A stretch of 64,000 nucleotides of DNA, taken from positions 24,304,001-24,368,000 of the forward strand of contig NC_135810.1 in NCBI RefSeq assembly GCF_964213995.1. Direction: 5' to 3'. The notes beneath the pieces are model-generated. The model saw nothing but the letters and a program-made list of their open reading frames with translations, had not been told where the DNA came from and did no database searches. The DNA comes from Mustelus asterias. Taxonomy: Eukaryota. Below, piece by piece: positions 36,572 through 36,890 of the stretch (positions are counted from its first letter, which is position 1; every line of letters begins with the position of its first letter). A program made the translations under genes and the position numbers.

Positions 36572-36697
36572 CTCAGTTAGATCCACTTTGGTCAACACAA
36601 AGATGGTCCTTCTGCCTTGTGGGTCCATCTGGCTCACCAAGTCAGTTACAATACTGTGTTCAGCATCTACTGAACCATCTTGGATACAAAGGATAAT
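36572..36697 (-). pseudogene. OPA1: OPA1 GTPase-domain cDNA fragment (inverted arm)
   Basis: [40 protein letters not shown], including the G4 motif TKVD. Confidence 0.95.
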
Positions 36698-36699
36698 CA

Positions 36700-36890
36700 A
36701 TGGTACTGGTCGATCTTCCTGGTGCTATCAGCACTGTAACATCAGGAATGGCTGCCGACACCAAGGATATAATTTTTAGCATAAGCAAGGCTTACATGCA
36801 GAACCCTAATGCCATTATCCTTTGTATCCAAGATGGTTCAGTAGATGCTGAACACAGTATTGTAACTGACTTGGTGAGCCAGATGGACCC
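36700..36890 (+). pseudogene. OPA1: OPA1 GTPase-domain cDNA fragment
   Basis: [64 protein letters not shown], including the G3 motif DLPG; no introns. Confidence 0.95.

Follow-up and report, generated by a model that had tools for sequence, protein, structure and literature searches.

The locus described here has its closest known counterparts among host-gene fragments carried by DNA transposons, among retrocopies with inverted 5' ends, and among pseudogenes that yield endogenous siRNAs. Animal Pack-TIRs, which carry host-gene sequence inside TIR transposons, are reported to arise mostly by DNA gap filling at internal breaks, sometimes with antisense transcription (Tan et al. 2021, PMC8277862); according to the same source, single-copy Pack-TIRs favour nearby genomic donors and one had captured a retrogene, and its main text does not contain the word "shark". 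Retrocopies in which an antisense 5' piece is followed by a sense piece that covers part of the same sequence again have been explained by the twin-priming model (PMC2912911). In human L1, internal duplication was reported for 283 of 1703 inverted inserts, with a median of 22 bp (bioRxiv 10.1101/2024.08.27.596794), while a survey of germline cases gives overlap in 44 of 106, with a median of 12 bp, and inversion in 3 of 23 processed pseudogenes (PMC12016303). In culture, 5' inversions are described as nearly exclusive to L1 in human cells, zebrafish ZfL2-1 not giving rise to them (PMC4245944). For cartilaginous fishes, 14,081 retrocopies have been counted, 95.7% of them species-specific (bioRxiv 10.64898/2026.06.26.734816). 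Pseudogene-derived endo-siRNAs have been reported from mouse oocytes (PMC13399003) and, in human, from psiPPM1K (PMC3616710); such sources are described as short-lived in evolution (PMC13399003). Mammalian Dicer is said to be a poor siRNA maker outside mouse oocytes, efficient endo-siRNA silencing in mammals being essentially confined to these cells (PMC6391682, PMC13399003), and a natural hairpin of ~300 bp, Optn, is reported to yield less than 10 RPM in most organs (PMC11239679).

In a 64-kb window of DNA from the shark Mustelus asterias (the whole stretch that was analysed) we found a Pack-TIR-like capture of what appears to be processed OPA1 mRNA, which is probably non-functional. Three OPA1 pieces, ~345 bp of OPA1 in all, are combined as a mosaic in the insert, which contains a perfect 77-bp inverted repeat. 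Its features and those of the transposon around it are as follows (a strand is given where one applies).

35993..35995: left copy of the target-site duplication, TGA
35996..37304: host non-autonomous DNA transposon, 1309 bp, PHIS/Harbinger-like by structure
35996..36011, plus strand: left terminal inverted repeat, 16 bp, matching the right one at 14 of 16 positions
36265..36305: small fold-back with 18-bp arms, 2 mismatches and a spacer of 5 nt, located innermost in the left element arm
36361..36505, minus strand: left part of the G-rich tandem core, with G-quadruplex motifs at 36369-36386, 36395-36417 and 36459-36476
36506..36546: filler of 41 nt, with two possible tiny OPA1 pieces that are not significant
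36547..36577, minus strand: OPA1 piece 3, shark residues ~834-844 (human ~802-812), with an Ala-to-Val change
36578..36697, minus strand: OPA1 piece 2, human I432-L471, containing the left arm of the inverted repeat
36621..36697, minus strand: left arm of the 77-bp inverted repeat, with a His-for-Arg codon at 36656-36658
36698..36699: inversion junction, with 1-2 extra bases beside a possible microhomology of 4-5 nt
36699..36890, plus strand: OPA1 piece 1, human M394-P457, with a Val-to-Ala change at 36724-36726
36814..36890, plus strand: right arm of the 77-bp inverted repeat, with a His-for-Arg codon at 36853-36855
36891..37060, minus strand: right part of the G-rich tandem core, with a G-quadruplex motif at 36911-36951
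37060..37304: right element arm, CpG o/e 1.12, with a presumed NRF1-type palindrome at 37130-37141 and presumed GC boxes, a possible promoter
37289..37304, minus strand: right terminal inverted repeat
37305..37307: right copy of the target-site duplication, TGA

Among known kinds, animal Pack-TIRs (PMC8277862) come closest: host-gene sequence within the defining range of 100-5000 bp of non-TE sequence lies between both ends of one TIR element, at an internal breakpoint, with intact termini and an identifiable parent gene. Unlike in the described cases, the filler is apparently spliced, is composed of three pieces and is inverted upon itself, and its donor lies outside the window. The element itself has short GG-starting TIRs and a 3-bp TSD, as reported for the PHIS superfamily (PIF/Harbinger, NuwaII; PMC4482050, PMC9179366), and the TGA found here fits the TNA pattern of NuwaII. 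The 5' C of the C/TNA/G context is missing, however, and the two sister elements found in the window, 42285-43321 (minus strand) and ~10105-11075 (minus strand), are flanked by TTT/TTT and AAT/TAT. With no transposase to place the family, "PHIS/Harbinger-like" denotes structural resemblance only. No Pfam match to a DDE transposase or a Myb/SANT domain was obtained among the 24 ORFs and 26 candidate exons scanned. Harbinger is reported as undetected in the elephant shark (PMC9179366).

Both sisters share the arms of the OPA1-bearing copy (85-87% identity for 42285-43321) and neither contains OPA1. The arms are rich in CpG (o/e 1.26 and 1.12 vs 0.35 for the window) and carry motifs that we take to be an NRF1-type palindrome and GC boxes; the sister arms also retain many CpGs and promoter-like motifs. 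Four G-quadruplex motifs lie in the G-rich core around the insert. In the sister at 42285-43321 the G-rich tandem array is internally inverted (42626-42961), while the OPA1-bearing copy has a second fold-back, that at 36265-36305, which is missing from the sister copy; the core of the element is thus unstable and prone to rearrange. An assembly gap of 200 N (37914-38113) lies ~1 kb from the insert.

At the protein level, the parent gene of the insert is clearly OPA1: the best matches are shark and ray OPA1 proteins (95-97% identity), which follow one high-scoring invertebrate protein (77%). Along the minus strand, the element is followed by P457 to M394 in antisense, I432 to L471 in sense, piece 3 in sense and the filler, after which the element resumes. 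The preliminary description of the locus had correctly assigned both arms and the loop to OPA1, but placed the left limit at 36572, which is wrong, since a third piece occupies 36547-36577. The source of piece 3 lies ~331 codons (~1 kb) downstream of L471 in OPA1, and its join to piece 2 is in frame; its score was reached by none of 1000 shuffles at the protein level and by none of 300 with each of three back-translated profiles. Two further candidate pieces in 36506-36540 were rejected: one of them was equalled by 0 of 300 shuffles with one ray profile, but by 80 and 84 of 300 with two others, and in a chained test the pair was equalled by 19 of 300 shuffles and by 47 of 394 real windows. OPA1 similarity in 36300-36365 was likewise tested and was non-significant. 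The segments 36306-36362 and 36506-36546, both missing from the sister copies, are alike over ~18 nt and not significantly similar to OPA1. A tblastn search of the 64-kb window revealed no further OPA1 sequence, no OPA1 locus and no donor.

In the human gene, codon 404 is the last before intron 12, and exons 13 and 14 meet between codons 434 and 438 (PMC8270428). Piece 1 runs uninterrupted across both places (N404/T405, after 36732, and between 36821 and 36833). Because the insert crosses two human intron positions without introns, it would derive from spliced RNA, assuming that shark introns are placed as in human. Neither a poly(A) nor an A tract follows the last OPA1 codon (~844 of the 992 shark residues), the 3' end of the mRNA being absent, and no target-site duplication of the insert itself was seen at 36546 or 36891, although without the insert this site is a tandem core that varies. 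Relative to its parent the insert is disabled: it is fragmentary and differs at 3-4 amino-acid positions that are otherwise nearly invariant, consistent with decay. The position of the Val-to-Ala change in piece 1 is Val in 115 of the 116 named homologues (120 matches minus 4 unnamed ones, with many rows representing isoforms of one species), and that of the Ala-to-Val change in piece 3 is Ala in 109 of 110.

The inverted repeat is as the preliminary description had it. Segments 36621-36697 and 36814-36890 are exact reverse complements (77/77) separated by 116 nt, of which 114-115 are OPA1; the claim that the loop is made of OPA1 therefore holds, as does the claim that each arm continues into different OPA1 sequence, the plus-strand side covering M394-P457 and the minus-strand side I432-L471 (human numbering). 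Complementarity ends on either side of the repeat. A perfect 77-bp repeat would be expected by chance ~2e-37 times in 64 kb. Folding bore out the claim that a transcript of either strand would form 77 bp of dsRNA homologous to OPA1: the hairpins of the two strands have energies of -185.5 and -191.9 kcal/mol (z -18.0 and -19.1; matched by 0 of 100 shuffles for each strand), and the 77-bp stem persists when the whole element is folded as the minus strand. At gathering thresholds, Rfam gave no match for the hairpin.

We consider it quite probable that this perfect repeat is a by-product of copying or repair, with no selected silencing role, whichever route produced it. The route that we slightly prefer is reverse transcription primed at a break. 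Processed OPA1 sequence would have filled a break in the G-rich core of the non-autonomous TIR transposon, and both ends of the break may have served as primers for reverse transcription of OPA1 mRNA. From the left end, ~31 nt around codon 810 would have been copied before a jump, at a short match, to a site ~1 kb upstream and extension to I432; the right end would have primed at P457 and extended to M394. The two cDNAs, overlapping by 77 nt, would then have been linked through their 3' ends, with 1-4 bases added, and template switching between the arms could later have spread the R445H change to both. In favour of a by-product we count the absence of introns, the lack of the insert in both sisters, the ready rearrangement of the element core, the G-quadruplex motifs on both sides of the insert, the preference of Pack-TIR gap filling for internal breakpoints (PMC8277862), the abundance of retrocopies in cartilaginous fishes, the homogenisation of repeat arms reported from yeast (PMC8604942) and a LINE in the window described below. 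Simple self-primed fold-back of a single cDNA is excluded, as the left arm runs beyond the end of the template that the right arm offers.

The layout, an inverted 5' piece and an overlapping sense piece, corresponds to "5' inversion with internal duplication", and the proposed formation works like twin priming at a break. Like twin-priming retrocopies (PMC12016303, bioRxiv 10.1101/2024.08.27.596794, PMC2912911), the insert has an antisense 5' piece, a sense piece that covers part of it again, and extra bases beside a possible microhomology at the junction, the 4-5-nt match being displaced by those bases. Unlike them, it has neither poly(A) nor TSD, contains an additional jump of ~1 kb, and resides in a non-mammalian host. 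We withhold the canonical label because poly(A) and TSD are missing, because the overlap is so long and because culture work found inversions almost exclusively with L1 in human cells (PMC4245944). The 77-bp overlap, well above the reported medians of 12-22 bp, counts against the route we favour, as does a change shared by both arms.

Both arms encode His where all 116 named homologues have Arg. The same change is known in human as an optic-atrophy disease allele, OPA1 c.1334G>A, R445H (PMC8270428), and is most simply explained here as a CpG transition, probably at the same CpG hotspot. Beyond the arms there are 2-3 replacements in ~144 non-synonymous sites (1.4-2.1%); were the arms decaying independently, their identity would have a probability of 0.04-0.12 (wide range 0.0001-0.77), and identity by itself is weak evidence. 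Of 50 CpGs in this copy of the element, 8 are decayed when the sister is taken as reference, which gives a chance of ~0.08 for a second, independent CpG hit in the same direction (8/50, halved for direction). A shared R445H is impossible from two copies of normal mRNA without a later step; it implies late duplication, homogenisation of the arms or, least likely, selection for pairing. One sequence cannot separate homogenisation, duplication from a retrocopy already decayed (in place or elsewhere) and compensatory change kept by selection, the first two of which require no function. In yeast, template switching is reported to invert spacers and to perfect the arms of inverted repeats, with arms of 7-16 bp only (PMC8604942).

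The most serious alternative concerns the route alone and leaves the neutral outcome unchanged. A longer OPA1 retrocopy, residing here or elsewhere, may have decayed first, and template switching at the DNA level may then have turned its 5' part around, copied 77 bp a second time and deleted ~1 kb. We regard this as doubtful, with an appreciable chance of being correct. It accounts in a single step for the shared R445H and the identical arms, and it fits the second fold-back in the same element copy, the inverted array in the sister, the known ability of template switching to invert spacers and yield perfect arms (PMC8604942), and the predominance of DNA gap filling among Pack-TIRs, one of them with a captured retrogene (PMC8277862). 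Against it, the window is without other OPA1 sequence, though single-copy Pack-TIRs favour nearby donors; the yeast events are limited to short arms (7-16 bp, PMC8604942); and a LINE in the window suggests that such repeats can form at integration.

This LINE (45794-48030, plus strand), located 9 kb from the OPA1 insert, is 5'-truncated and encodes a reverse-transcriptase domain. We take it to be CR1-like. Its first 85 nt are the exact reverse complement (85/85) of its own 46562-46646, there is a 4-nt match to the flank, and the flanking sequences appear, from weak alignments, to be adjacent parts of one older LINE. Since its 85-bp perfect repeat has no host-gene target, such repeats arise in this window without one. 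Other repeats in the window include a 27-bp inverted repeat at 14175-14234 (26/27, 6-nt spacer), in which the 5' end of a SINE is a fold-back of the SINE head; a small inverted-repeat element with 62-bp arms at 12426-12630, with relatives at 4454-4563 and 26251-26379; and an inverted-repeat element with arms of ~250 bp at 15979-17671. Broken retroelement pieces at 49982-50969 and 52877-54482, presumably Penelope-like, have a weak GIY-YIG match and are split by LINE fragments. An exact direct repeat of 34 nt (28744-28777 and 30273-30306, 1.5 kb apart) is possibly a long target duplication.

A trans-acting silencing role, as proposed in the preliminary description, is possible but unsupported, and we consider it unlikely, if unproven rather than refuted. 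The locus would be transcribed, perhaps from the CpG-rich arms, and Dicer would cut the stem into 3-4 siRNAs that lower OPA1; selection would keep the pairing, and R445H in both arms would be a compensatory pair (G-C to A-U). The stem is indeed stable on both strands, its two-sided change would have only the ~0.08 chance given above under independent CpG decay in the same direction, and the changed base is avoided by 36 of the 57 possible 21-mers. Within the 26 codons of the arm, a protein-level comparison finds one amino-acid change relative to OPA1 homologues. Judging from their composition, the CpG-island-like arms with their promoter-like motifs make some transcription plausible. Precedents also exist, in that mouse oocytes and human psiPPM1K use pseudogene sequence in this manner; Tam 2008 and Watanabe 2008 are reportedly the sources for the mouse-oocyte pseudogene endo-siRNAs. 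The kinship claimed earlier is sound as far as the class goes: inverted repeats of pseudogenes are a reported source of endo-siRNAs (PMC3616710, PMC13399003, PMC11239679), and here too inverted or antisense pseudogene sequence would give dsRNA matching the parent mRNA. The described loci (mouse oocytes, psiPPM1K, Optn) differ in that small RNAs have been mapped to them, and the stem here is 77 bp vs ~300 bp in Optn.

What weighs against a silencing role is that the nearby LINE has an equally perfect repeat with no host-gene target, that the layout is one that retrotransposition or template switching produces by accident, and that a single two-sided change is also given by homogenisation or late duplication. 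In addition, RNAi from endogenous sources works poorly outside mouse oocytes, pseudogenes that supply siRNAs do not persist for long in evolution, and a partial scan of the window identified no host gene: 24 of 69 long ORFs gave retroelement domains or sub-threshold matches only, and the 26 predicted exons scanned, out of 28, yielded no match over the cut-off. We did observe a candidate exon of 90 nt at 34777-34866 (minus strand), 1.1 kb from the element, with a strong acceptor, a consensus donor and one open frame; it has no match in PDB or the protein collection, which is weak evidence, and if it is real, the hairpin could be intronic. The literature listings searched contained no title on shark endo-siRNAs or on this element. 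A more elaborate version, which from the sequence we judge quite unlikely, is that the TIR element, still mobilisable and with both TIRs and the TSD intact, transcribes the OPA1 hairpin from its own CpG-rich arm and feeds RNAi in shark germ cells, possibly from multiple copies, with pairing under selection.

An assembly or chimeric-read artefact is very improbable. The arms are 100% identical, long C runs flank the insert and the assembly gap starts ~1 kb away at 37914, all of which could raise suspicion; but different OPA1 sequence beyond each arm means that this is no mirror-image fold-back, among named homologues none of 116 has the substitution at Arg445 and 109 of 110 lack the one at Ala in piece 3, so that the source is not current mRNA, and the host element retains both its TIRs, with the TSD intact. 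That the pieces code for a short peptide resembling OPA1, or for a fragment with dominant-negative action, has a negligible chance of being true: both frames are open for ~60 codons and pieces 2 and 3 join in frame, but the latter is explained by a 1 in 3 chance, the fragments make up less than 10% of OPA1, no protein of 33-107 aa spans the chimera at high identity among the best 120 of 161 matches, and a 77-bp stem would be expected to obstruct translation.

Each ingredient of the locus is known, and it is the combination that is new, namely a three-piece, self-inverted filler of apparently spliced sequence in a TIR element. A literature search, to which most subscription papers were closed, found no paper on an OPA1 pseudogene or retrocopy. 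As a by-product of copying or repair, which we regard as its probable nature, the insert illustrates cleanly how three pieces of spliced mRNA can be used to patch a DNA transposon. The insert and the LINE nearby, taken together, suggest that 5' ends with an inversion and an overlap occur beyond mammalian L1 (compare the culture experiments of PMC4245944). The copy-specific base at 36854/36657 distinguishes the locus from OPA1; if small RNAs were found, this would be a gene-targeting endo-siRNA source outside mammals, and if the hairpin were in addition still mobile, a "Pack" element that carries, ready for RNAi, a hairpin directed at an essential gene of mitochondrial fusion. As matters stand, the locus rather calls for caution, as a perfect hairpin made of gene sequence need not, in a shark genome, be a product of selection.
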